From contig CANMVY010000006.1 of assembly GCA_947501265.1 (NCBI GenBank), positions 5-64,004 of the forward strand: a stretch of 64,000 nucleotides of DNA, read 5' to 3'. Below are positions 4,324 to 39,543 of this stretch, piece after piece. The position numbers were made by a program, and so were the translations under genes. The notes under the pieces were generated by a model that did not search any database, was not told where the DNA came from, and was given only the letters and a program-made list of their open reading frames with translations. The stretch comes from Bacteroidota bacterium. Its GTDB lineage: Bacteria > Bacteroidota > Bacteroidia > UBA7662 > CANHCV01. Position 1 is the first letter of the stretch, and the number at the start of each line of letters is the position of its first letter.

Positions 4324-4352
4324 GAAAAAGGGGGAACTTGGAAGTTCCCCCT
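4324..4352 (-). terminator. Rho-independent terminator for the 4373..6637 gene.
   Basis: Hairpin GGGGGAAC-TTGGAA-GTTCCCCC, followed on the minus strand by TTTTT. Confidence 0.7.
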
Positions 4353-4372
4353 TTCGAAAAAGAATGAATTGG

Positions 4373-6637
4373 TTACTTGATCAACTTGTAGTTGACTATT
4401 CCTTCTTTGGTTTGAATCCGAAGGAAGTAAGCCCCTTTGTTTAAATTCTCGGTGTTCAAAACGGTTTGAACATTTCCAGACTTCATTCCCATATCTAAGG
4501 TCTGTACCAATTTGCCTTGAATATCCATCAAAGTGATCTTCACCTGAGACGATTTTAAAAGTTCAAATTGAACATGAATCTGATCTTGAACAGGATTAGG
4601 GTAAACCATGGTGTTCAACACATCAAATTGTTTAGTTTGATTTACAGAAGCCAAAATGTAGGTAGAATTAATCACAAAATCGATTCCAGAAACCGTTGGA
4701 TTTGAAGAGCTAACAACCACCGTTACATTCGCAGGCGTTAACCCTGGCATATCCATGGTAACGGTATAGGTACCTGCCTCAACATCTGAAATGATGTATT
4801 CGCCATTCATATCCGATTCAGCAGTTCCTACCACATCGTTGCTGGAATTCACCAAGTAAACCAAATGTCCGGCTAAGGAATTGACCTTTCGTGATCCCAT
4901 AAAAACATTTCCACGAACTACAAATGGACGAGTGGGGCGATTTGGCATTTTTGCCAAACGAATATTGGTGTTCTGACGACCTGGGCATACGTTAACAGGA
5001 GTTGAAGAGAACCACCATGTGGAATTACCGAAATACGTAGGAAGGTACATTCGGAATCCCGGCGTGGAAGAATCGGCCATCGCTTGAATCAAATAGGAAC
5101 CGTTGGCCACCCCGTTAAAGGTGTAATATCCATTAGCGTTGGAACGAACGGTTTGGCGCAAGGCTGTACCTAAATTTCCAACTTCGTACAATCTCACCCA
5201 TGCATTATTTACAGCCAAATTCATACTGTCACGGGTAATATAACCGGCAATGGTACACGTTGTTGCATTACTTCCCAAACGAATGGTATCGCATTTATCG
5301 GATCGGCAATTGGTTGCTGAGTCAAACATGGTTAAGCAAACACGGAAAATACCAGTAGAATTGTAGGTTTTAGATGGATTCATAGCAGTTGAGCTAGTTC
5401 CATCTCCAAAACTCCAAGTGTAGTTGGCCGCGGGGCCTCCCATGGAGATGTTTTGGAATTGAACGGTACTATTCTGAATGGTATAAGTGAAATTGGCTCG
5501 ACAATTTGGAGCCGTTGGAGTTCCCATTACACGAATAGAATCACAAATGGTGTTTCGGCAAATGGCGCCATTGGAAGAATCGATGATGGTTAAACAAGCC
5601 CAATAAACCCCATTACGAGAATAGATATGATTAACCACAGCTCCTGCTCCGAAAGTTCCATCACCAAAATTCCAAGAATAAGTGGTTCGAGGTGAAGGCG
5701 TTAACGACCTACTCGTAAATAGTACTGAACGGGAAGATTGTTGTACGAAGTGCGTAAAGGAGGCTCTACAACCGGTATTTGAACCACCACCACTAATGAT
5801 AAAACTATCGCATTTGGTGTTATTGCACTGATTCATTGAATCAACAATGGTCAAACAAATGGTATAAGATCCAGGCGTTAAACTTGTTGTTGCAGATTGT
5901 CCCATTAAAACAATGGGAGAATTGTTAGCTTGCGTGAGAGTCCATCGGTAAAAAGTACCGGGGCCTACTCCTGTTGAAGTAGAAGTAAATACACCCGTAT
6001 TTCCCTGAATCGATTTTGTAAAATTGGCCAAACAAGCAGTAGTAGAATTTTGAATGGAAATATTTTTACAGATGGTATCATTGCAATTGGTATTCGGATT
6101 TGAAATACTTAAGCAAACGCTATACATGCCTGATGCACGGTAAGTGTGGGAAGGATTCGCCAAAGTGGAAGAAGTTCCATCTCCAAATGACCAAAAGTAA
6201 TTGGTCCCTGGCGTGTTTACTCCTGTAGAGGTATTGGTAAAGTTGGAGGTTAACCCGGTTGAACTAGAAGTGAAATTGGCAATGCATGCCGTTGTATTAC
6301 CGCAATAATTTAGGTTCAAGGTTAAAGTTGGCGAATTAGGTGAAAAGAATCCGTTCGCACTAACCAATACACCCAAACAATTGAATGTGGCTGCGGTAAC
6401 CATTCCCTGAGGAACTCGGCTATTCACCGTAGCAGAATAACAACCGTTTGCATTGGTTGTAACCGTTACCGGTGGAACCATGGTCATGGAATCGAAACGA
6501 AGGGTAATGCTTTTATTTGTAAGGTTTACTCCTCCCCCATTCAACAAGCAACCGCTAATGGTAAATGGGTTTTGGCTGAAGCCAAACAGCCCCACCATGA
6601 CAAAGGCGAGGACAAAAATGTGTTTAATTTTATTCAT
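4373..6637 (-). CDS. T9SS cargo protein: signal peptide, 4 PKD domains, 2 carboxypeptidase-regulatory-like domains, T9SS type-A C-terminal sorting domain.
   Basis: PKD motifs W(S/N)FGDGT...NP.HTY occur four times. The C-terminus reads VYPNPVQDQIHVQFELL...ITLMDIQGKLV...GAYFLRIQT...KLIK. The start overlaps the stop of the upstream gene (ATGA at 6634-6637). Confidence 0.8.
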   Translation of the reverse strand: MNKIKHIFVLAFVMVGLFGFSQNPFTISGCLLNGGGVNLTNKSITLRFDSMTMVPPVTVTTNANGCYSATVNSRVPQGMVTAATFNCLGVLVSANGFFSPNSPTLTLNLNYCGNTTACIANFTSSSTGLTSNFTNTSTGVNTPGTNYFWSFGDGTSSTLANPSHTYRASGMYSVCLSISNPNTNCNDTICKNISIQNSTTACLANFTKSIQGNTGVFTSTSTGVGPGTFYRWTLTQANNSPIVLMGQSATTSLTPGSYTICLTIVDSMNQCNNTKCDSFIISGGGSNTGCRASFTHFVQQSSRSVLFTSRSLTPSPRTTYSWNFGDGTFGAGAVVNHIYSRNGVYWACLTIIDSSNGAICRNTICDSIRVMGTPTAPNCRANFTYTIQNSTVQFQNISMGGPAANYTWSFGDGTSSTAMNPSKTYNSTGIFRVCLTMFDSATNCRSDKCDTIRLGSNATTCTIAGYITRDSMNLAVNNAWVRLYEVGNLGTALRQTVRSNANGYYTFNGVANGSYLIQAMADSSTPGFRMYLPTYFGNSTWWFSSTPVNVCPGRQNTNIRLAKMPNRPTRPFVVRGNVFMGSRKVNSLAGHLVYLVNSSNDVVGTAESDMNGEYIISDVEAGTYTVTMDMPGLTPANVTVVVSSSNPTVSGIDFVINSTYILASVNQTKQFDVLNTMVYPNPVQDQIHVQFELLKSSQVKITLMDIQGKLVQTLDMGMKSGNVQTVLNTENLNKGAYFLRIQTKEGIVNYKLIK

Positions 6638-8064
6638 GGGTTTGTAATTAATTTTTGCATAAAGCTTCCATCCAAAGACCTCAAAAGGTGCAAATTGTTG
6701 CTTGATGAAAGTTGAAAGTTGAAAGTATTTCCTGGAAAAATTTGAAATGATTGAATGATACGACCAGATAAGTCATAAATTTCAAATTCTCGAATTTCAT
6801 TAGAACGATTTTCAAGGGAATAAGAGCTGCCAGAATGGGTTAAAACGAAATTGGAACGATCTAGCATCGTAGGAATTACATTGTTGGCCACCATTTTAAC
6901 AACAACCGAGTTGGTTGCATTCGGGGTTCCACCATTGAATTGTACATAGGCCGTGTTTTCAATGGAATCTCCATAACGAAGTCCTTGGCGAACACCAGCA
7001 GAAAAGTACAAGTAACCTTGAGACAAAGTGGGGTCATTCGAAGAATCAGGCAAAACGATGTTTGAAAAATCCCAACGAAGAACATTGCCAAGTACGCTAA
7101 ATTGGAAAGGATGACTCGAAGACCCGATTCGAATATCGGTTAATGGAAGATTGGTATCCAAAGTATCAATCACCGAAACATTGGAAACCGTAAATCCGGT
7201 TTTATTCTGAAATCGAATGAAGTAATTGATGCGGTTCGTTGACGGAGAAATATAGGTTGGATTAACGGATTTAAAGGTTGGTGAGATGTTATTCGTTACC
7301 GATTGAACGACATTCGATTTGTTGTCAGATGGGTAAATGTCGGTTAAATTTTGAGTTGCTGCCTCAAATTGAACCATGGATCCTGGCAATACCGTTGAAG
7401 GAATTCGAACATCTACAAAAATTTGTTTTTCTTCTCTGATGTGAATGGTTTGGTTAATATCCCAATACAAGGTATTACCAACTGAACGACTCGGTGCAGG
7501 AACGGAACGATAATGTTGTGTTCCAGTAGGGATTTCAAACTTAACGGAAAAAGAATCAATTGCTTCAGATCCCAAATTTTTTAAATGAATCGTGTATCGA
7601 TCAATGCTGGAATTCAAAGCATTCCAACCGTATGGAGCTGATGTTGTTACTTTTATGTCGGTTCGATTTGGAAAAATGGTTTGAGGAATGTGATAGAAAT
7701 TCTTAGGAGCTGTGTCGGATGCCACATAAAATGTTGCATTTTGAATGCACTTATTTTGAGTGTAGTAATGACGATAATCGTTGGTATCTCTTAACAAGGT
7801 AATCATGTGGAGCATGCGAATGGGGATTCTGAAAGAATAATTCCCCAATGAATCGGTCATGGTGTACTGCGGATTGCTTCCATTGGGAAGACTAATTTTC
7901 ACCATCCGAAAAGAAAGTCCTTCTTCGTTGGAGTTAAAACTACAGTTTTCATTGTTATCGTGAAAAACCTTTCCTCCAACCCAACCCGTTTGAGCAATTG
8001 CACCAGAAGTCATTCCCAAAATGGAAATGAAAAAAAGTACTTTGTAAATGCTCATTTTGGACAT
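6634..8064 (-). CDS. Secreted protein with an SdrD-B/Cna-B-like N-terminal domain and a T9SS C-terminal sorting domain. Function unknown.
   Basis: Signal peptide MSKMSIYKVLFFISILGMTSGAIAQ. N-terminal motif GWVGGKVFHDNNENC...GNYSF. C-terminal EFEIYDLSGRIIQ...LHLLRSLDGSFMQKLI matches the distal half of a T9SS C-terminal domain. Confidence 0.6.
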   Translation of the reverse strand: MSKMSIYKVLFFISILGMTSGAIAQTGWVGGKVFHDNNENCSFNSNEEGLSFRMVKISLPNGSNPQYTMTDSLGNYSFRIPIRMLHMITLLRDTNDYRHYYTQNKCIQNATFYVASDTAPKNFYHIPQTIFPNRTDIKVTTSAPYGWNALNSSIDRYTIHLKNLGSEAIDSFSVKFEIPTGTQHYRSVPAPSRSVGNTLYWDINQTIHIREEKQIFVDVRIPSTVLPGSMVQFEAATQNLTDIYPSDNKSNVVQSVTNNISPTFKSVNPTYISPSTNRINYFIRFQNKTGFTVSNVSVIDTLDTNLPLTDIRIGSSSHPFQFSVLGNVLRWDFSNIVLPDSSNDPTLSQGYLYFSAGVRQGLRYGDSIENTAYVQFNGGTPNATNSVVVKMVANNVIPTMLDRSNFVLTHSGSSYSLENRSNEIREFEIYDLSGRIIQSFQIFPGNTFNFQLSSSNNLHLLRSLDGSFMQKLITNP

Positions 8065-9608
8065 TATTTTGATTTAAGGTAATAACGAACAGAAACGCCT
8101 GCCTCAAATATACTCATTTCTCTGAAAATCAAACTGTTTTTGTTTGAAAATTTGACAGAAAAGGGGCGGCCGATTTGTGCTCCAATTCCCCAATGTTGGG
8201 CCACTCTCGATTGAATCCAAATCGAAGATTTTCCAACTGCTTCCCATTCTATTTTTGAAGGCATGTTGGTTGATTCCAAGGAAATGGGATCGACGATTTG
8301 AAGAATGTTCATTTTTTGGAATCCCATTCCCAAATTCTGTTGAATTCCCAACTCTAACGATGGGTTAATTTTCCAAGATTTGTAAATGCTTCCTTGAAGG
8401 TTCATTCTGCTTTGAGTCACTTCAATCTGTTCTTCCTTGTGAATTTGCCCTCGTGGACCAAGTGGAATATATCCCAAAATTCTTCCAGTTGAACTATCTA
8501 AAACGGGGATTTCTGTAATGTGATATTCAATTTCTTTTTTGAACGTACTTGTTGAAACACCACCTCCAAAGCCGACCCCAAAACCTTTACTCATTGGTTT
8601 GATCCAAAGAATACCTATGTTCATTTGTGGAATGATCTTCCAACTCTGAAGTGGATCCCAATGTTTATTTTTCTCTCCGAAATATTCCAATTTTTTATTC
8701 GTTGAACCGGATGATAAACTCAATTGCAAAAAGTTGCGCTTTTTGTTGTTGGATTTAACGATCGGTAAATCATCCTTTCTTTGAAAGTTTCCTTGAATCA
8801 ACCTTGTTTTTGATTTCAACGGGGAAAACTCCAAGTTTTCAACCACTAATTTTCCTTTTGAAGTATTGGTTTCTGAATTCTCAAGTAATCTTCCAATGTT
8901 ATTGAAATTTGAAGTCAATTTTGATTCAATATCTTCAAAAGAATTTTTCAATTTCCTCTTTTTTCGTGCAGTTTCTTTTGAATTTAAAAGAGTTGGTTCA
9001 AATGATCTTGAATTGATTGATTTTGTTTTGGTTAAGTTGATTTTATCGGCTTTTGAATTGTTTTGAAGAATTGGGTTGCGATGGGCCAATTTTCTAGCTC
9101 TAGAAGAACCTACCAAACCAGAAATAGTACCGCTTTTTGGTTGTTCCGCAAGGTTTGGTTGAGCTTGATGTAGATTTCCTTTTGATTTAGATTCAATACC
9201 AAGATTACCTTCTTCATTGATCTCGAACTTTTGAATGGACCAACCGGAAAAAAAGATCAACAATAAAATCGCAGCACGTTTGCTCCATTTTTTCAAGATC
9301 AGCCCATTCCAATAGGATTTAAACTCTTGGAAGCTTAATCGACCCGCATTAAGATGTTGAGAACTTTGAGTGTGTAACCACTCATCGAGGGAATGGGTTG
9401 CCGATTCTTGTTTCTCTTGGTACTTTAAAAACTCAGCGAAATTTGGGTTTTCTAAGGGTACAGAATTGGTTTGATTTTCCAGCCAATGATCTAATTGATC
9501 TTTTTTAGGAATGACTGACTTTTCTTGAAACGATTCAAAGGAAGGAACATCGTTTTCAACAGCGTTGGAAAGTGACGCATGTAAAAATTGATCAAGCGGA
9601 TGTTTCAT
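8064..9608 (-). CDS. Anti-sigma-factor-like single-pass membrane protein. About 110-aa cytoplasmic N-domain, one TM helix, a K/S/N-rich linker, and a beta-strand-rich C-terminal domain.
   Basis: Its start overlaps the stop of the ECF sigma gene by 17 bp. TM segment AAILLLIFFSGWSIQKF. Repeated LD(H/E)WL..Q motifs in the N-domain. No recognisable FecR motif. Confidence 0.45.
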   Translation of the reverse strand: MKHPLDQFLHASLSNAVENDVPSFESFQEKSVIPKKDQLDHWLENQTNSVPLENPNFAEFLKYQEKQESATHSLDEWLHTQSSQHLNAGRLSFQEFKSYWNGLILKKWSKRAAILLLIFFSGWSIQKFEINEEGNLGIESKSKGNLHQAQPNLAEQPKSGTISGLVGSSRARKLAHRNPILQNNSKADKINLTKTKSINSRSFEPTLLNSKETARKKRKLKNSFEDIESKLTSNFNNIGRLLENSETNTSKGKLVVENLEFSPLKSKTRLIQGNFQRKDDLPIVKSNNKKRNFLQLSLSSGSTNKKLEYFGEKNKHWDPLQSWKIIPQMNIGILWIKPMSKGFGVGFGGGVSTSTFKKEIEYHITEIPVLDSSTGRILGYIPLGPRGQIHKEEQIEVTQSRMNLQGSIYKSWKINPSLELGIQQNLGMGFQKMNILQIVDPISLESTNMPSKIEWEAVGKSSIWIQSRVAQHWGIGAQIGRPFSVKFSNKNSLIFREMSIFEAGVSVRYYLKSK

Positions 9609-10197
9609 CCCATCCCTCCTTTCTCAATAATTTTTTCAACGCAGCCCGAGCACGATTCAGTTGGCTTTTTGAAGTTCCTTCGGAAATACTCAGCAATTCT
9701 GAAATTTCTTTGTGCGAATAATGCTCTACTGCGTACAAATTCAAAATGGTACGATAACCAACCGGCAACTTGTGAATCAATCGAATTACGGCATCGTATT
9801 GGTGGTCTTTTCGGTGAAGAGCTTCGTAATCGAGATCGAAATCTGGATCATGCCCCATGGTATCGTCATTCCATTCCACCAAAATTTGTTTTTTAATGGC
9901 ATTAATGGCATTATTAATCATAACCCGGGTAATCCAAGTTTCCAATTTTGCTTGTCCTTTAAACGTATGGATTTTTGTAAAAACCTTGATGAAACCGTCG
10001 TGCATCAAATCTTTAGCATCTTCAATTTTTGCTGTGTATCGTTTGCAAATAGAAAGCATTTTGGGCGCAAATCGTTCGTACAAAACCTTACTGGCAAGCT
10101 GTTCACCGGCTAAAACTCCGGCAATTAACAACTCGTCGGTATGGTATGTTTCTTCCTTTTGGCCCAAAAATTTTCGTATGTTGATGCTTAATTCCAA
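9592..10197 (-). CDS. RNA polymerase sigma-70 factor, ECF subfamily.
   Basis: Region 2: ELLIAGVLAGEQLASKVLYERFAPKMLSICKRY. Region 4: YRTILNLYAVEHYSHKEISELLSISEGTSKSQLNRARAALKK. There is no in-frame ATG upstream of region 2, so the start must be TTG (10197) or a nearby TTG. Confidence 0.85.
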   Translation of the reverse strand: MELSINIRKFLGQKEETYHTDELLIAGVLAGEQLASKVLYERFAPKMLSICKRYTAKIEDAKDLMHDGFIKVFTKIHTFKGQAKLETWITRVMINNAINAIKKQILVEWNDDTMGHDPDFDLDYEALHRKDHQYDAVIRLIHKLPVGYRTILNLYAVEHYSHKEISELLSISEGTSKSQLNRARAALKKLLRKEGWDETSA

Positions 10198-10237
10198 ATC
10201 GAAGTAAAGACGAGAAGATGATGAATGGTTGCAGACT

Positions 10238-11317
10238 TTAAAGAGGAATTTCCAATTTTTCGGAAATCTTTTTCAATTGATCAACAACAATGGGATTTAA
10301 TGGAATTCCTTTTTCCATTCTTTCCGAAAAATATGCCATTTCTGGTTCACCTGGAATGATGACAGGAATATTTTCAACAGCTGGAATGGAGGATTTAAAT
10401 CGGTGAATCCAAGTTAAAATGGCTTGGTCGTAGGAAGATCGTGTTCGGAATGCTTCCGGGTTGATGATCCAAAAGCAATGACCAATCCCCTTCCCTACCG
10501 TTTCCGAAGGCATAGGTGCAAATGCCGGGAAGGGCGGAACCCACGGACCGAAGTTAGCTCCACTTAAAACGCCCGAAAACAAGTCGACCACGGCCGACAA
10601 TCCGAAACCTTTGTGTACGCCTAACTCTTCAAAACTACCCAGAGGAAGCATCATTCCTCCTTTTTTCAAAATGGAAGGATCGGTACTAGAATTTCCATCG
10701 GTATCCATCACCCACCCTTTTGGAATGGGTTTGCCTTTTCTTTCAGCAATTTCTAATTTACCGTTGGCCGCTGCAGAGGTTGCCAAATCAACCACCACGT
10801 GGCGGCCATCTGGACTTGGAAAAGCATAGCACATGGGATTCGTTCCCAACATTCGTTCAATTCCCCCAGCAGGGGCCACAAATGCAGAAGCATTGGTGAA
10901 TGAAATACCAATAAATCCTTGAGAAAGCGCTTTTTTTAAATGGGAATAAGCAATTCCGAAATGATTAGAATGATTCACAACCACCATTCCTATTCCACAT
11001 TTTTTCGCCTTTTCTATGGCCATATCGGTTGCGATAGAACCTGAAACCAAACCAACTGCCGCATCAGCATCCAATGTGGCCGTGGCCAGGGCTTCCGCTT
11101 CGATGGTGATGTTTGGAGTTGGATTGATTCGCCCAACCTGAATGAGATTTAAATAACCTTGCAAGCGAGCTACTCCGTGGGAATCAATTCCGCGCAAATC
11201 GGCTTCCAATAAATTGTTGGTAGCTAGCGCGGCATCATCTTCTGAAAATCCACTTTTTATCCATACTTGATGAACAAAATTCCGAAGTTCATAAAACTTA
11301 AATACAACGTCTTCCAT
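10238..11317 (-). CDS. Ldh_2-family (malate / L-lactate / sulfolactate dehydrogenase type 2) oxidoreductase.
   Basis: Motifs GIDSHGV, NHSNHFG, GTNPMCYAFP and AANGKLEIAERKGKPIPKGW are typical of PF02615. Confidence 0.75.
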   Translation of the reverse strand: MEDVVFKFYELRNFVHQVWIKSGFSEDDAALATNNLLEADLRGIDSHGVARLQGYLNLIQVGRINPTPNITIEAEALATATLDADAAVGLVSGSIATDMAIEKAKKCGIGMVVVNHSNHFGIAYSHLKKALSQGFIGISFTNASAFVAPAGGIERMLGTNPMCYAFPSPDGRHVVVDLATSAAANGKLEIAERKGKPIPKGWVMDTDGNSSTDPSILKKGGMMLPLGSFEELGVHKGFGLSAVVDLFSGVLSGANFGPWVPPFPAFAPMPSETVGKGIGHCFWIINPEAFRTRSSYDQAILTWIHRFKSSIPAVENIPVIIPGEPEMAYFSERMEKGIPLNPIVVDQLKKISEKLEIPL

Positions 11318-12051
11318 TATCGAATCCCTTCCACCAGAATATCTGCAATATGCAAGACTTTCATTGGACTATTTTTATTCTCGAGGTAAGCTTTCAAGTG
11401 AAGCAAACAGCTCAAATCGGAAGAAACCAAAAATTCAGCTCCTGTTTTTTCGGCTTCAATGCATTTTTGATCACCCATCCCAACCGAAATGGGCTCGTAT
11501 TTTGCCGCAAAAGTTCCTCCAAATCCACAGCAAGTTCTATTGTTCTCTAAATCTCTCCAATCGATGCCCTGAATGGGTTTCAATAATTTTCGTGGTTCTT
11601 CGTAAATGTTGCATTCTCGAAGTGCAGAACAAGCATCGTGGTAAGTAATGCTCGCATCAAAACGCATGGTTGAGGTATCTACTTTTAACACGTTCACGAG
11701 AAAATCAACAAATTCAAAGGTGTTTTTTTTGATTTGTTTCCAAGTGTTTTGAAGGGATGAATTTTGGAATAAATCAGCGTAGAAATTTTTAATCATTCCG
11801 GTGCAAGAACTTGAAAGAACCACAACATACCGGTCATTGTTGAATTCTCCGATAAACTTTTCGGCCACTTCTTGCGCCTCAGGCCAAAATCCCGCATTGA
11901 ACGCCGGTTGTCCGCAACATGTTTGATTTTGGTGGTAATGTACCTCGCAACCGAAATACTCTAAAACGCGCACGGCATTCATGGCACTTTGTGGGAAACA
12001 TTGGTCTACGAAGCAAGGGACAAAGAAATCAATTTGAATTTTCTGGGACAT
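11317..12051 (-). CDS. LutA/YkgE-family (Fe-S)-binding protein with two CCG cysteine-rich domains.
   Basis: IDFFVPCFVDQ...CCGQPA and CCGFGGTF...DLSCLLHL, co-linear with E. coli YkgE. Overlaps Ldh_2 by 1 nt and the MFS gene by 23 nt. Confidence 0.8.
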   Translation of the reverse strand: MSQKIQIDFFVPCFVDQCFPQSAMNAVRVLEYFGCEVHYHQNQTCCGQPAFNAGFWPEAQEVAEKFIGEFNNDRYVVVLSSSCTGMIKNFYADLFQNSSLQNTWKQIKKNTFEFVDFLVNVLKVDTSTMRFDASITYHDACSALRECNIYEEPRKLLKPIQGIDWRDLENNRTCCGFGGTFAAKYEPISVGMGDQKCIEAEKTGAEFLVSSDLSCLLHLKAYLENKNSPMKVLHIADILVEGIR

Positions 12052-13444
12052 GTTTAGGGCGTTGAATCATTTGAAACAAAATAAAACTAGCAACAAAAAA
12101 ACCTGCCAACATCAAAGTAGAAACCCTCATGCTTCCGGTAATTTCGTTCACCACTCCAAATGCAAAAGTACCCAAAACGATACCTATTTTCTCGGTAAAC
12201 TCGAACAACGAAAAGAAAGAAGCCAGATCGGTGGAATCTTTTGGAATAAAGCGAGCAAAAGATGCTCTCGACAACGATTGAATGCCTCCCATAATCAAAC
12301 CTACAGCCAAAGCCAAAGCGTAAAATTGCATATCCGTTTGCAAGTAGTAGGCACCAATACAAATCCCCACCCAAAGCAATACGCCTGCTTTTATCACCGG
12401 AATGTCACCAAATTTATTGGATAATTTGGAAAAAAGATAGGCTCCTCCTATTGCTACCAATTGAATTAACAAAACCGTTAGGATTAATTGGCCTGTTTCT
12501 AAATGCAATTCATTTTTACCGAACAAGGTAGCCACAAACATCACCGTTTGAAGACCCATGCTCAACATGAAAAAACCGAAGATGAAAAAAGAAAGTGATC
12601 GATTTTGCAAAGCATATTGAAGTACTTTTTTCAACTCTTTGAATCCGGCCCCCAATTGTTTCAATCCGCCTTTACCTTTTGCTTTTTCAGAAGGAAGTCG
12701 TTTGAACGTGATAAGCGAAAATCCAAACCACCAGATTCCTGTTAAAACAAAACCTATTCTCGAACCCAATCCTGCAAAGTGAGACTTCACCAATTGATCC
12801 AATTCTTCTTTGGGTAAATTTTGATCTAGCGTTCCACGAAATCCTTCCACATCAAAGAAAAGTCCGGGAACTAAAATCATCACTAAAATTAAAATCAACA
12901 GAATAACCGAGCCAATGTAGCCATAGGAAAAACCTTTGGCAGAAACCTCATCGTATTTGTCGGGTGAGGCAATTTCGGGCAAGAAGCCGTTGTAATACAC
13001 CAAGCTTCCACCCCACCCGATTCCTGCGAGAATAAAACCAATAACACCAATTTCAACGTGGTTGTTATCGAAGAAAAAGAGCGACATCACGGATAGAGAA
13101 CCCAAGATGACGTAGAAGCGCATGAACTTCTTTTTGGCTCCAGAAACATCGGCCCATCCTGACAACAATGGAGCCAAAAGAGCAACCATGAAATAGAAAA
13201 AGGTGCCGCAATAGGAATACAGAGCTGTGTTTAGAAACTCCATTCCAAAAATTTTAATGTAGTGCAATTGTTGCTCTGCACCTTCCGAAAAAACTTTTTC
13301 GATTCTACCTGTATTTTGAGCGGCGGCTTTGGTAACGCCTTCGAAATATTGGGGAAAAATTGCTGTTGTAATAACCAAATTGAAAACCGAATTGGCCCAG
13401 TCGTACATGGCCCAACCTCGAATGGTTTTTGGATTGTTCATCAT
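12029..13444 (-). CDS. MFS transporter, UMF1/Atg22-like family.
   Basis: N-terminal MYDWANSVFNLVITTAIFPQYF signature. Multiple TM segments. Confidence 0.75.
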   Translation of the reverse strand: MMNNPKTIRGWAMYDWANSVFNLVITTAIFPQYFEGVTKAAAQNTGRIEKVFSEGAEQQLHYIKIFGMEFLNTALYSYCGTFFYFMVALLAPLLSGWADVSGAKKKFMRFYVILGSLSVMSLFFFDNNHVEIGVIGFILAGIGWGGSLVYYNGFLPEIASPDKYDEVSAKGFSYGYIGSVILLILILVMILVPGLFFDVEGFRGTLDQNLPKEELDQLVKSHFAGLGSRIGFVLTGIWWFGFSLITFKRLPSEKAKGKGGLKQLGAGFKELKKVLQYALQNRSLSFFIFGFFMLSMGLQTVMFVATLFGKNELHLETGQLILTVLLIQLVAIGGAYLFSKLSNKFGDIPVIKAGVLLWVGICIGAYYLQTDMQFYALALAVGLIMGGIQSLSRASFARFIPKDSTDLASFFSLFEFTEKIGIVLGTFAFGVVNEITGSMRVSTLMLAGFFVASFILFQMIQRPKHVPENSN

Positions 13445-38092: not shown

Positions 38093-39481
38093 TTATAGAT
38101 GAATAACTTCACCATAAGCGGCTGCAGTTGCTTCCATCACGGCTTCCGACATGGTTGGGTGTGGATGAACAGCTTTCAAAATTTCATGTCCGGTCGTTTC
38201 TAATTTCCGAGCTACAACAACTTCGGCGATAATTTCGGTTACGTTTGCTCCAATCATGTGGGCTCCAAGGAACTCGCCGTATTTCGCATCGAAAATTACT
38301 TTTACGAATCCTTCTTTTGCACCGGCTGCAGAGGCTTTTCCGGAAGCTGAGAACGGGAATTTTCCGACTTTGATTTCCATTCCGGCTTCTTTTGCTGCGC
38401 GTTCGGTCATCCCAACGCTAGCAATTTCCGGAGCGCAATAGGTACATCCTGGAATATTTCCATAATCCAATGCCTCAACATGCATACCAGCAATTTTTTC
38501 AACGCAAATGATTCCTTCCGCAGAAGCTACGTGCGCCAATGAAGGACCTTTAACGATGTCACCGATGGCGTAATATCCAGGAATATTGGTGCGATAAAAA
38601 TCATCAACCATTACTTTTCCTTTATCGGTGGCAATGCCAACATCTTCTAAACCAATGTTTTCGAGATTGGTGATTACTCCAGCTGCAGAAAGCACCACAT
38701 CGCACTCGATGATTTGTTCACCGGATGCTGTTTTTACGGTAACTTTTGCACCGGAACCCGATTTTTCAACTTTTTCCACGGAGGAGTTGGTTAAAATATC
38801 GATTCCTTTTTTCTTGTAGATTTTTTCTAGTTCTTTGGAAACATCGGTATCTTCAACTGGAACAATGTTGGGCATAAATTCAACGATGGTCACTTTCGTT
38901 CCCATGGTGCTGTAGAAGTATGCAAATTCCACACCGATCGCACCAGAACCGATTACGACCAATGATTTGGGTTGTTTTTCCAACGACATTGCTTTGCGGT
39001 ATTCGATAACCATTTCACCGTCGATGGGAACATTTGGTAATTGACGAGCACGAGCACCGGTTGCTAAAATGATGTGGTTAGCCGAAACTTCTGAAATTTT
39101 TCCATCGGCATCCGTTACCTCTACCTTTTTTCCTGCTTTTACTTTTCCGTAACCCATGATGACATCGATTTTATTCTTCTTCATCAAAAATTGAATGCCT
39201 TTGCTCATTCCATCGGCAACGCCTCGAGAGCGCTTCACTACGGCATCGAAATCTGCTTTTGCGTCTGAAACGGTAATTCCATAATCGGATGCGTGCTGAA
39301 TGTATTCAAAAACCTGCGCACTTTTCAACAAGGCTTTGGTTGGAATACATCCCCAATTTAAGCAAATACCACCCAACGATTCCTTTTCAATGATGGCGGT
39401 TTTCATTCCTAATTGAGAAGCGCGAATTGCGGTTACATAACCACCAGGACCACTTCCGATAACAACGACGTCGTAATTCAT
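38093..39481 (-). CDS. lpdA: Dihydrolipoyl dehydrogenase.
   Basis: MNYDVVVIGSGPGGY FAD motif. Redox-active GGICLNWGCIPTK. Confidence 0.9.
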   Translation of the reverse strand: MNYDVVVIGSGPGGYVTAIRASQLGMKTAIIEKESLGGICLNWGCIPTKALLKSAQVFEYIQHASDYGITVSDAKADFDAVVKRSRGVADGMSKGIQFLMKKNKIDVIMGYGKVKAGKKVEVTDADGKISEVSANHIILATGARARQLPNVPIDGEMVIEYRKAMSLEKQPKSLVVIGSGAIGVEFAYFYSTMGTKVTIVEFMPNIVPVEDTDVSKELEKIYKKKGIDILTNSSVEKVEKSGSGAKVTVKTASGEQIIECDVVLSAAGVITNLENIGLEDVGIATDKGKVMVDDFYRTNIPGYYAIGDIVKGPSLAHVASAEGIICVEKIAGMHVEALDYGNIPGCTYCAPEIASVGMTERAAKEAGMEIKVGKFPFSASGKASAAGAKEGFVKVIFDAKYGEFLGAHMIGANVTEIIAEVVVARKLETTGHEILKAVHPHPTMSEAVMEATAAAYGEVIHL

Positions 39482-39543
39482 GAAATTCAAATTTATTGGC
39501 AAAGATAACAATTTCCTTTCGCTTCCTTTTTACTTTTACCCCC

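Follow-up and report, generated by a model that had tools for sequence, protein, structure and literature searches.

We propose that the product of the gene at 8064..9608 on the minus strand is an anti-sigma factor with one end in the cytoplasm and, at the other, a beta-barrel in the outer membrane, and we consider it likely that this protein is a divergent variant of the Dma (dual membrane-spanning anti-sigma) type. It is unusual in its triplicated N-terminal unit, its divergent barrel sequence and its fixed link to a DUF7619 cargo protein of the T9SS. The gene was found in a window of 64,000 nucleotides, the whole stretch of DNA that was analysed. A preliminary description had suggested that such a protein would be a new anti-sigma design, a claim that is not supported because the cytoplasm-to-outer-membrane architecture was already published when the Dma family of Bacteroidota was described from Bacteroides thetaiotaomicron (Pardue et al., 2024; PMC10927553).

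The apparent sigma factor operon

The candidate gene is part of an apparent operon with the following elements, from upstream to downstream:

10209..10232, minus strand: promoter-like motif of the ECF type, GCAACC-N14-CGTC, located immediately 5' of the sigma gene
9592..10197, minus strand: ECF sigma factor gene, matching Sigma70_r2 (1e-15), Sigma70_r4_2 (7e-16) and TIGR02937 (5e-28)
8064..9608, minus strand: Dma-type anti-sigma candidate gene, a single ORF with ATG start, 514 aa
6634..8064, minus strand: DUF7619 gene, 476 aa, with signal peptide, DUF11/SdrD_B-like domains and PF24595 DUF7619 (3.9e-27)
4373..6637, minus strand: PKD-repeat gene, 754 aa, with PKD repeats, CarboxypepD_reg and a Por_Secre_tail T9SS sorting domain
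4326..4355, minus strand: terminator-like hairpin downstream of the fourth gene, 13 pairs and then a T run

The start of the sigma gene is uncertain, since translation may begin at a TTG at 10197 (201 aa) or at a TTG at 10167 (191 aa); gene callers picked either 191 or 201 aa for the orthologous sigmas as well. The candidate gene follows directly with an overlap of 17 nt, as originally described, and is preceded by AGGAGG located 8 nt 5' of its ATG. This coupling is a constant property of the locus. The overlap amounts to 11-17 nt in all relatives, down to 21% protein and 36% sigma identity, and in all of them the candidate is an uninterrupted single ORF. The first ~110 amino acids are indeed coding, as had been argued from the reading frame, because the sequence MKHPLDQFL is unchanged in nine orthologues.

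Downstream, the DUF7619 gene belongs to the conserved context as well. The T9SS tail of the DUF7619 protein is weak (TIGR04183 at 0.012). The PKD-repeat gene overlaps the DUF7619 gene by 4 nt and is the last of the apparent operon. A DUF7619 homologue follows the anti-sigma gene in all loci of the family and of a sister subfamily that have a complete downstream flank (the flanks of L046 and L072 are cut and were left out of this count); no mainstream Dma-like locus has one in this position. The three-gene module is conserved among the relatives, and no further ECF sigma or paralogous barrel was found within the window.

The upstream motif is kept in the intergenic alignment of orthologous loci and is also present upstream of the sigma gene in L001-L005, L039 and L057, distant sigma relatives included. 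Within the window it has two matches against 0.32 expected by chance. The second site (GCAACC-N-CGTC, 39043-39064) lies within a gene and was treated as a chance occurrence. The motif may represent the promoter of the sigma operon.

The sigma factor shares 35-47% identity with 80 metagenomic sigmas, its nearest relatives in metagenomes, and for most of these the next gene encodes a protein of 400-540 aa in total with an N-terminal unit IDxLFRxxLxDYExxPPxxVWxxI and a TM helix at about residues 40-70. PF13568 (OMP_b-brl_2) is matched by 29 of the 46 complete proteins encoded after related metagenomic sigmas, and the sampled members of these reach the gathering score. This partner layout corresponds to the published Dma architecture, in which a short sigma-binding region at the N-terminus is followed by a TM helix, a tether that is long and disordered, and finally an OMP_b-brl_2 barrel at the C-terminus (PMC10927553), and the matched Pfam family is the one with which Dma1 is annotated, PF13568 OMP_b-brl_2 (PMC10927553; PMC13088901).

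Four-part organization of the anti-sigma candidate

Along the 514 residues, four parts can be delineated, with smaller elements inside the first and the last:

9288..9608, minus strand: N-terminal region on the cytoplasmic side, residues 1-107, made up of three helix-loop-helix units of ~35 aa in tandem
9519-9602, 9411-9500 and 9306-9395, minus strand: N-terminal units 1-3, residues about 3-30, 37-66 and 72-101
9225..9287, minus strand: single TM helix, about residues 108-128, with a hydropathy peak at residues 112-130
8754..9224, minus strand: K/S/N-rich variable tether, residues 129-285, probably disordered and periplasmic
8067..8753, minus strand: C-terminal 8-stranded beta-barrel, residues 286-514 (229 aa), predicted all-beta
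8439..8531, minus strand: most conserved segment of the family, residues 360-390, EYHITEIPVLDSxTGxILGYIPLGPRGQIH

The repeated motif LD(H/E)WL(E/H)(N/T)Q of the preliminary description is found as LDHWLENQ at residue 39 and LDEWLHTQ at residue 74, and is complemented by a third, more degenerate copy, PLDQFLHAS, at residue 4. When the protein is aligned with itself, its best repeat score is equalled by only 1 of 300 shuffles, and the best scores of the orthologue P0009 and the relative P0022 by none of 300 each. AlphaFold2 places helices at residues 4-12, 24-30, 38-47, 57-68 and 73-84, with low confidence (pLDDT 44-66). In hhalign, the unit profile falls into register with the profile built from the N-terminal units of Dma-like proteins (P = 8e-4, against 0.09 for a reversed control), and the kinship can be followed through the intermediate sequences of P0022 (LDNFLADSLSTHETPSNDWNLFEAKL), L084 (LERFLQESFRDFGDNPPDSVWDSI) and L040 (IFDDLIKSQLEGFEANVSMADWDAIEAQL). 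An HMM of the Dma-like unit does not detect the units of the window protein at E < 0.01. The number of units ranges from one to five among the relatives; a single copy is present in 56 of the 60 related metagenomic proteins where the unit HMM finds a unit, and the window protein has three. These units are putative sigma-binding elements.

The candidate has no Pfam or NCBIfam match at threshold. FecR-like and RskA-like features, already reported as lacking, are absent from it in the sense that Pfam and NCBIfam give no FecR, RskA or zf-HC2 match (PF04773, PF10099 and PF13490) at E <= 1. There is no cysteine in residues 1-105, so the HxxxCxxC motif is absent there. A weak Pfam match of the linker to DUF6675 (E = 0.024) falls below the cut-off and was discarded as low-complexity noise. 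A sequence-profile search of the PDB yielded nothing relevant for the candidate, the match to the kinetochore protein NKP2 being at chance level (E = 0.55).

The TM segment is flanked by KKWSKR on its N-side and by acidic residues on its C-side, which argues for an N-in topology, and AlphaFold2 models an unbroken helix over residues 93-126. The K/S/N-rich stretch that had been noticed behind it, residues 128-285, comprises ~158 aa with 12.7% K, 11.4% S and 11.4% N and carries a net charge of +12. Conservation is lowest in this stretch, where orthologues share 43% identity on average and indels extend over as many as 45 columns. Its length varies between 130 and 189 aa among family members, and AlphaFold2 gives it a pLDDT of ~25. 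This tether is probably periplasmic and disordered.

Residues 286-514 form the best conserved part, with 80% mean identity among orthologues. The expectation of an OmpA-like C-terminus holds as far as the N-terminal membrane barrel of OmpA is concerned; it does not hold for the C-terminal peptidoglycan-binding domain of OmpA. The full-length AlphaFold2 run (9-sequence alignment, mean pLDDT 31.6) gave an unusable model of the C-terminus, which was therefore modelled as a domain-only run with an alignment of just 13 more diverse sequences. In the domain-only model, residues 360-390 fall between strands 3 and 4 and include a small hairpin. This segment shows 93% mean identity among orthologues, and its P, V, D, I, G and Y do not change even where relatives share only 18-21% identity. 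Standard outer-membrane protein topology would put the segment on the extracellular side, as a predicted extracellular loop 2.

Relation to the Dma family and other systems

The sole Pfam families touched by any family member are PF13568 (0.004-0.013) and PF13505 (0.027), both outer-membrane barrels. The gathering threshold of PF13568 (27 bits) is reached neither by P0023 (17.8 bits) nor by L069 (16.5 bits), and the window protein gives no match. The connection emerges through the sister subfamily. The family HMM matches its members L046, L069 and L072 at 2e-12 to 2e-7, and an HMM of PF13568-positive barrels in turn matches L069 at 1e-10. Family and sister subfamily together align with the Dma-like barrels at an hhalign probability of 97.9% (E = 3.6e-13, 219 columns); the family without its sister gives a weak result (11% in local mode, 27% in global mode). 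Sequence comparison thus supports homology of the window barrel to the PF13568 barrels that is transitive only, by way of the sister subfamily.

The window protein's subfamily is very small and divergent. When 1.8 billion representatives were searched exhaustively with its HMM, only five proteins were retrieved, none of them among the abundant OMP_b-brl_2 proteins, so HMMER alone cannot join the family to its mainstream counterparts. In a scan of GTDB genomes, the family occurred in two species-level MAGs only, and a single-sequence search with P0023 added no other members than P0025 and P0026. A profile word-index search with the C-terminal alignment A3 was uninformative, as it returned the fragment P0024 alone and missed known members. 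The source records of the family are Bacteroidota or Bacteroidetes MAGs, with T9SS sorting domains encoded by neighbouring genes.

Other systems resemble the candidate in single respects. In the FecA/FecR/FecI system, two proteins relay a signal from the outer membrane to the cytoplasmic ECF sigma, namely a TonB-dependent receptor and FecR, the anti-sigma of the inner membrane. The window candidate would do both jobs in one polypeptide and has no FecR/FecR_C domain. The class I anti-sigmas (RseA, RsrA/ZAS, RskA) share with the candidate the gene position after an ECF sigma and a helical N-terminus followed by one TM, yet they contain one ASD four-helix bundle, in contrast to the short helix-loop-helix units and the lack of cysteines in residues 1-105 of the window protein. 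The N-domain of OmpA, OprF-N, NspA, PagL and OmpW are small 8-stranded barrels whose signal peptide is cleaved off and which lack a cytoplasmic or TM part. Compared with small outer-membrane barrels of this kind (OMP_b-brl / OMP_b-brl_2), the window barrel has a sequence identity of 6-14%.

Published reports describe Dma factors as widespread among Bacteroidota, with ECF21 sigmas encoded beside them (PMC10927553; PMC13088901). The PF13568 proteins of Dma architecture that follow the nearest relatives of the window sigma lend indirect support to a placement of this sigma in ECF group 21. Residues 1-40 of Dma1 suffice for sigma pulldown, and the location and processing of Dma proteins were followed by fractionation and western blots (PMC10927553, Fig. 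5). Like Dma1, the window protein comes from the phylum Bacteroidota, has the four-part layout and is encoded in one operon together with an ECF sigma. The two differ in the cytoplasmic part, which comprises ~105 aa in three tandem units in the window protein while ~40 aa are sufficient in Dma1. Unlike that of Dma1, the window barrel stays under the PF13568 threshold and has a loop-2 motif of high conservation. In its operon, the window gene is accompanied by T9SS cargo genes (DUF7619, PKD), in place of the genes for NigD-like proteins that accompany Dma1. Reo/EcfO of Bacteroides fragilis, the Dma1 orthologue, was studied earlier (PMC10927553). Reo shares the proposed domain layout and sequesters an ECF sigma via its N-terminal cytoplasmic region, but belongs to an oxidative-stress response, a role that nothing at the window locus suggests. 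The tie to the named Dma family is drawn from architecture and the shared Pfam family, with BT_4721, BT_1558 and Reo compared by description.

Alternative explanations and proposed mechanism

An unusual architecture in a sequence from an uncultured Bacteroidota MAG could by itself raise the suspicion of a fusion, a frameshift, an assembly artefact or a mis-annotation of two genes, one for a small cytoplasmic and one for a separate outer-membrane protein. This explanation is effectively refuted, given that the ORF is uninterrupted in independent NCBI, JGI, ENA and Logan assemblies and that the four-part layout is constant from 100% to 21% identity; we give it next to no credence. A conventional anti-sigma factor confined to a single membrane is an unlikely reading, too.

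The protein might also be no anti-sigma factor but an envelope-spanning structural or assembly protein, e.g., an anchor or usher for the DUF7619 protein, that is merely co-transcribed with the sigma of the operon. The strict DUF7619 association in the family and the sister subfamily, absent from mainstream Dma-like loci, would fit such a function, as would the peak of conservation in a predicted surface loop instead of the N-terminus. Nevertheless, anti-sigma genes classically stand right behind an ECF sigma gene and are translationally coupled to it, an arrangement that all relatives keep; the N-terminal units resemble the Dma-like cytoplasmic unit, whose counterpart in Dma1 (residues 1-40) is enough for pulling down the sigma (PMC10927553); and the invariant MKHPLDQFL points to a constrained cytoplasmic function. 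We therefore regard an exclusively structural role as improbable, on a par with the single-membrane factor. A structural and an anti-sigma role are compatible with each other.

For the divergent Dma-type anti-sigma factor that we favour, the following mechanism can be envisaged. The N-terminal 105 residues would remain on the cytoplasmic side, keeping the sigma at the inner membrane. They would represent three tandem copies of a ~30-aa helix-loop-helix unit, of which ordinary Dma-like proteins have one as their entire cytoplasmic portion. The one TM helix would serve as inner-membrane anchor, the disordered, positively charged tether of ~158 aa would span the periplasm and the C-terminal 229 aa would be inserted in the outer membrane as an 8-stranded barrel. 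A signal from the cell surface or the outer membrane, perhaps read by the conserved predicted extracellular loop 2, would lead to proteolysis of the tether or the TM region. The freed sigma would then transcribe its own operon from GCAACC-N14-CGTC, including the DUF7619 and PKD surface proteins secreted by the T9SS.

More speculatively, the system could act as a surface-protein checkpoint, in which loop 2 senses the presence, attachment or load of the co-encoded DUF7619 protein, and three to five units hold several sigmas or clamp a single one with high avidity. We would assign only a small chance to this extension. Neither multi-valent sigma sequestration nor a Dma-type sensor coupled to T9SS cargo is described in PMC10927553 or PMC13088901. 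If the checkpoint reading were true, sigma release would be switch-like.

To our knowledge, Dma-type anti-sigmas are the sole proteins reported to link the Gram-negative cell surface and the cytoplasm in one polypeptide. With the window protein as a divergent member, the Dma design would reach well beyond the OMP_b-brl_2 proteins recognized by Pfam, into Bacteroidota from the environment and into operons that encode surface proteins of the T9SS, and its putative sigma-binding unit in the cytoplasm could multiply in tandem, from one to five copies. The conserved predicted surface loop and the fixed DUF7619 partner gene would offer a candidate sensor/signal pair, which is still missing for Dma1 and Dma2.

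Sigma operon and layout of the protein

The 514-aa protein is encoded directly after an ECF sigma gene, with which its gene overlaps by 17 nt, in a set of four translationally coupled genes (sigma, the 514-aa protein, a DUF7619 protein and a PKD/CarboxypepD_reg/Por_Secre_tail protein):

10209-10232, minus strand: ECF-type promoter-like motif GCAACC-N14-CGTC, directly 5' of the sigma gene
9592..10197, minus strand: ECF sigma ORF, directly 5' of the gene for the 514-aa protein (Sigma70_r2, 1e-15; Sigma70_r4_2, 7e-16; TIGR02937, 5e-28)
8064..9608, minus strand: ORF of the 514-aa protein, ATG start with AGGAGG 8 nt 5' of the ATG
6634..8064, minus strand: DUF7619 gene, predicted surface protein (signal peptide, SdrD_B/DUF11-like domains, DUF7619)
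4373..6637, minus strand: PKD/CarboxypepD_reg/Por_Secre_tail gene, predicted surface protein (PKD repeats, CarboxypepD_reg, T9SS sorting domain)
4326-4355: strong terminator-like hairpin after the four-gene set

All relatives, even at a protein identity as low as 21%, show an overlap of 11-17 nt with the end of the sigma gene, and in each of them a DUF7619 gene, whose product usually bears a T9SS sorting domain, lies 3' of the anti-sigma gene. The T9SS tail is weakly detectable in the DUF7619 protein of the window (TIGR04183, E = 0.012) and clear in the homologues of loci L008, L038 and L040. A survey of intramolecular isopeptide bonds reportedly includes DUF7619 (PMC12617251).

The motif GCAACC-N14-CGTC, conserved in the orthologous loci, found in L001-L005 and also present 5' of two distantly related sigmas (L039:3923-3946; L057:3931-3954), is probably an autoregulated ECF promoter. 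If so, the sigma factor more likely starts at TTG 10167 (191 aa) than at 10197. A second match, GCAACC-N12-CGTC at 39043-39064 (minus strand), lies within a 472-aa ORF (38093..39511) and is probably due to chance; at least two motif matches occurred in 2 of 100 shuffles. Upstream on the same strand (10238-13444, minus) are genes for an Ldh_2-type dehydrogenase, a CCG-domain protein and an ATG22/MFS transporter, an order that every orthologous locus keeps beside the sigma operon, those of the distant homologues P0021 and P0022 included. As the gap between the Ldh_2 stop and the sigma start is only about 40 nt, read-through transcription is possible.

The preliminary description had predicted an anti-sigma factor from the gene position and had seen no FecR- or RskA-like features. 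The overlap and the sigma domains upstream are confirmed, and the protein matches no Pfam or NCBIfam family above threshold, FecR, RskA and zf-HC2 included. The LD(H/E)WL motifs reported for its cytoplasmic part occur as LDHWLENQ from residue 39 and LDEWLHTQ from residue 74, with a degenerate third copy at residue 4 (PLDQFLHAS). These repeats exceed chance: 1 of 300 shuffles equalled the best internal self-alignment score, and none of 300 did so for either the orthologue P0009 or P0022, whose five copies recur every 31 aa. The single hydrophobic segment (about residues 108-128, KKWSKR at its N-side) is followed by the K/S/N-rich stretch noted earlier, which spans residues 128-285 with a net charge of +12. 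This linker is the least conserved part among orthologues (43% mean identity, lengths differing by up to 45 columns); conservation is highest in residues 286-514 (80%). The N-terminus, already taken to be coding, clearly is, as MKHPLDQFL is identical in nine orthologues.

The C-terminal barrel

The full-length AlphaFold2 model reached a mean pLDDT of 31.6. Residues 286-514 alone, modelled from a 13-sequence alignment with divergent relatives, gave a pLDDT of 81.4 and a pTM of 0.67; this model shows eight long strands, and strands 3 and 4 have a small hairpin between them. The preliminary description had pointed to beta-barrel-like alternation here and proposed structure prediction as a check; the model bears this out, and several strands indeed alternate hydrophobic with Gly/Ser/polar faces. 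In the model, connections of 2-4 residues lie on the side of both termini and connections of 7-24 residues on the opposite side, which is the usual pattern of outer-membrane proteins.

Table. Comparison values of the C-terminal domain.
Designed TM barrel: 18.2
Legionella porin III ('Outer membrane protein beta-barrel domain-containing protein'): 17.5
NspA: 16.9
PagL: 16.6
OmpA: 15.4
OprF N-domain: 15.2
OmpW: 14.7
Soluble avidin-like barrels: about 10-11

The last strand, GVSVRYYL, is conserved family-wide. Conservation of the whole protein peaks in EYHITEIPVLDSxTGxILGYIPLGPRGQIH (93% identity among orthologues), with P, V, D, I, G and Y the same in all members of the family. This segment runs from the end of strand 3 through the hairpin to the start of strand 4 and, by standard topology, would form extracellular loop 2. 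The only Pfam families touched by any family member, always below threshold, are the outer-membrane barrel families PF13568 and PF13505.

Probable kinship to the Dma anti-sigma factors

A path from cytoplasm to outer membrane had been proposed as a new anti-sigma design; it was, however, already published in 2024 by Pardue et al. (PNAS, PMC10927553) as Dma. In Dma1 (BT_4721, annotated as an OMP_b-brl_2 protein), the first 40 residues suffice to pull down Das1, an ECF21 sigma; they are followed by one TM helix and a long disordered region, and the C-terminal eight-stranded barrel is found in outer-membrane vesicles (PMC10927553). Reo/EcfO of B. fragilis is an orthologue studied earlier, the family occurs throughout Bacteroidota and nowhere else, and signal-induced proteolysis has been proposed (PMC10927553). 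A 2026 paper on Dma2 gives the same four-part definition, with ECF21 sigmas encoded adjacent to Dma proteins (PMC13088901).

We approached kinship through the sigma factor, scanning the family sigma alignment against metagenome contigs. Among the 80 loci obtained (sigmas 35-47% identical to that of the window), the gene right after the sigma matches the unit HMM in 60 of 70 cases; its typical product has 400-540 aa, with the unit IDxLFRxxLxDYExxPPxxVWxxIxxxL and a TM helix at about residues 40-70. PF13568 is matched at E <= 0.01 by 29 of 46 complete proteins, those sampled passing the gathering score over nearly the full model length. The window sigma thus belongs to a clade whose partners show Dma architecture.

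For the barrel, a sister subfamily formed by five of these loci provides the bridge. The window-family barrel HMM matches L046, L069, L072 and L040 (2e-12 to 1e-4), and L038 was added by sequence likeness; the loop-2 motif of the window family is common to them, e.g., YNFTITESPLYD...YSYVPLDP in L069. An HMM built solely from PF13568-positive barrels matched L069 at 1e-10. In hhalign, family and sister together align with these barrels at a probability of 97.9% (E = 3.6e-13, 219 columns), whereas the window family alone reaches 11%, so that homology is supported transitively only. In three sister genes (L038:4520-5735, L069:4132-5503, L072:4515-5823) the conserved unit (LDNLQHIDELL...) precedes the first Met in the stop-to-stop frame, pointing to a non-ATG start 5' of the first ATG; automatic gene calls would cut off their putative sigma-binding unit.

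For the N-terminus, 21 repeat units of the window family were set against the N-terminal unit from 29 Dma-like proteins. They align full-length and in register, LD..L...L.......P..F..F against ID..FR..L.D.E..PP..VW..I (hhalign P-value 8e-4; reversed control 0.09 over 7 columns). The unit HMM alone did not detect the units of the window protein; the intermediate sequences P0022, L084 and L040 make the kinship plausible.

Table. Copies of the N-terminal unit.
56 of the 60 proteins found by the unit HMM: 1
Remaining 4 of these 60: 2
Sister subfamily (by eye): 1
P0023 group: 2
Window protein and P0021: 3
P0022: 5

An anti-sigma factor with an outer-membrane barrel is the best supported reading, and we consider it probable. 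A soluble periplasmic barrel is a less likely reading. The constant DUF7619 neighbor could speak for a protein that serves structurally in displaying T9SS cargo and has no anti-sigma function, a less likely option beside the overlap with the sigma gene in every relative. An annotation artefact is less likely too. By its likeness to the published description of Dma1, the anti-sigma candidate is a divergent variant of the Dma design.

Subfamily traits and links to the cell surface

Four traits set the window protein apart within this design. Its barrel remains sub-threshold for PF13568, and its cytoplasmic part would consist of three tandem copies of the Dma-type sigma-binding unit, present as one copy in most Dma-like proteins. 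The conserved predicted surface loop marks the subfamily, and the gene is fixed beside its DUF7619 partner: wherever the flank is long enough, this T9SS cargo gene lies 3' of the anti-sigma gene in all loci of the family and the sister subfamily, but in none of the mainstream Dma-like loci. The loop-2 barrel type thus stays linked to the DUF7619 surface protein even where sigma identity has dropped to about 35-40%, which suggests that this surface protein may be part of the signal or of the regulon.

The family is rare. A word-index search of 5.8 billion proteins gave nine proteins (47-100% identity), and searching 1.8 billion cluster representatives exhaustively with a profile brought only three more, all distant (P0021, P0022, P0023), with two further relatives of P0023. 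The gene is present in two MAGs of the GTDB species set, and named sources are uncultured Bacteroidota throughout.

In eight of the 46 complete cases (L012, L027, L036, L039, L042, L047, L052/L053 and L057; e.g., L039:4568-5812), the gene directly after the sigma encodes a protein with the N-terminal Dma-like unit and one TM helix but no barrel; its C-terminal end holds PKD domain(s) and a type-B T9SS C-terminal signal (CHU_C). For an anti-sigma-like protein, combining a cytoplasmic N-terminus with a T9SS sorting domain is topologically odd, and such proteins may couple an ECF sigma to the cell surface in another way.
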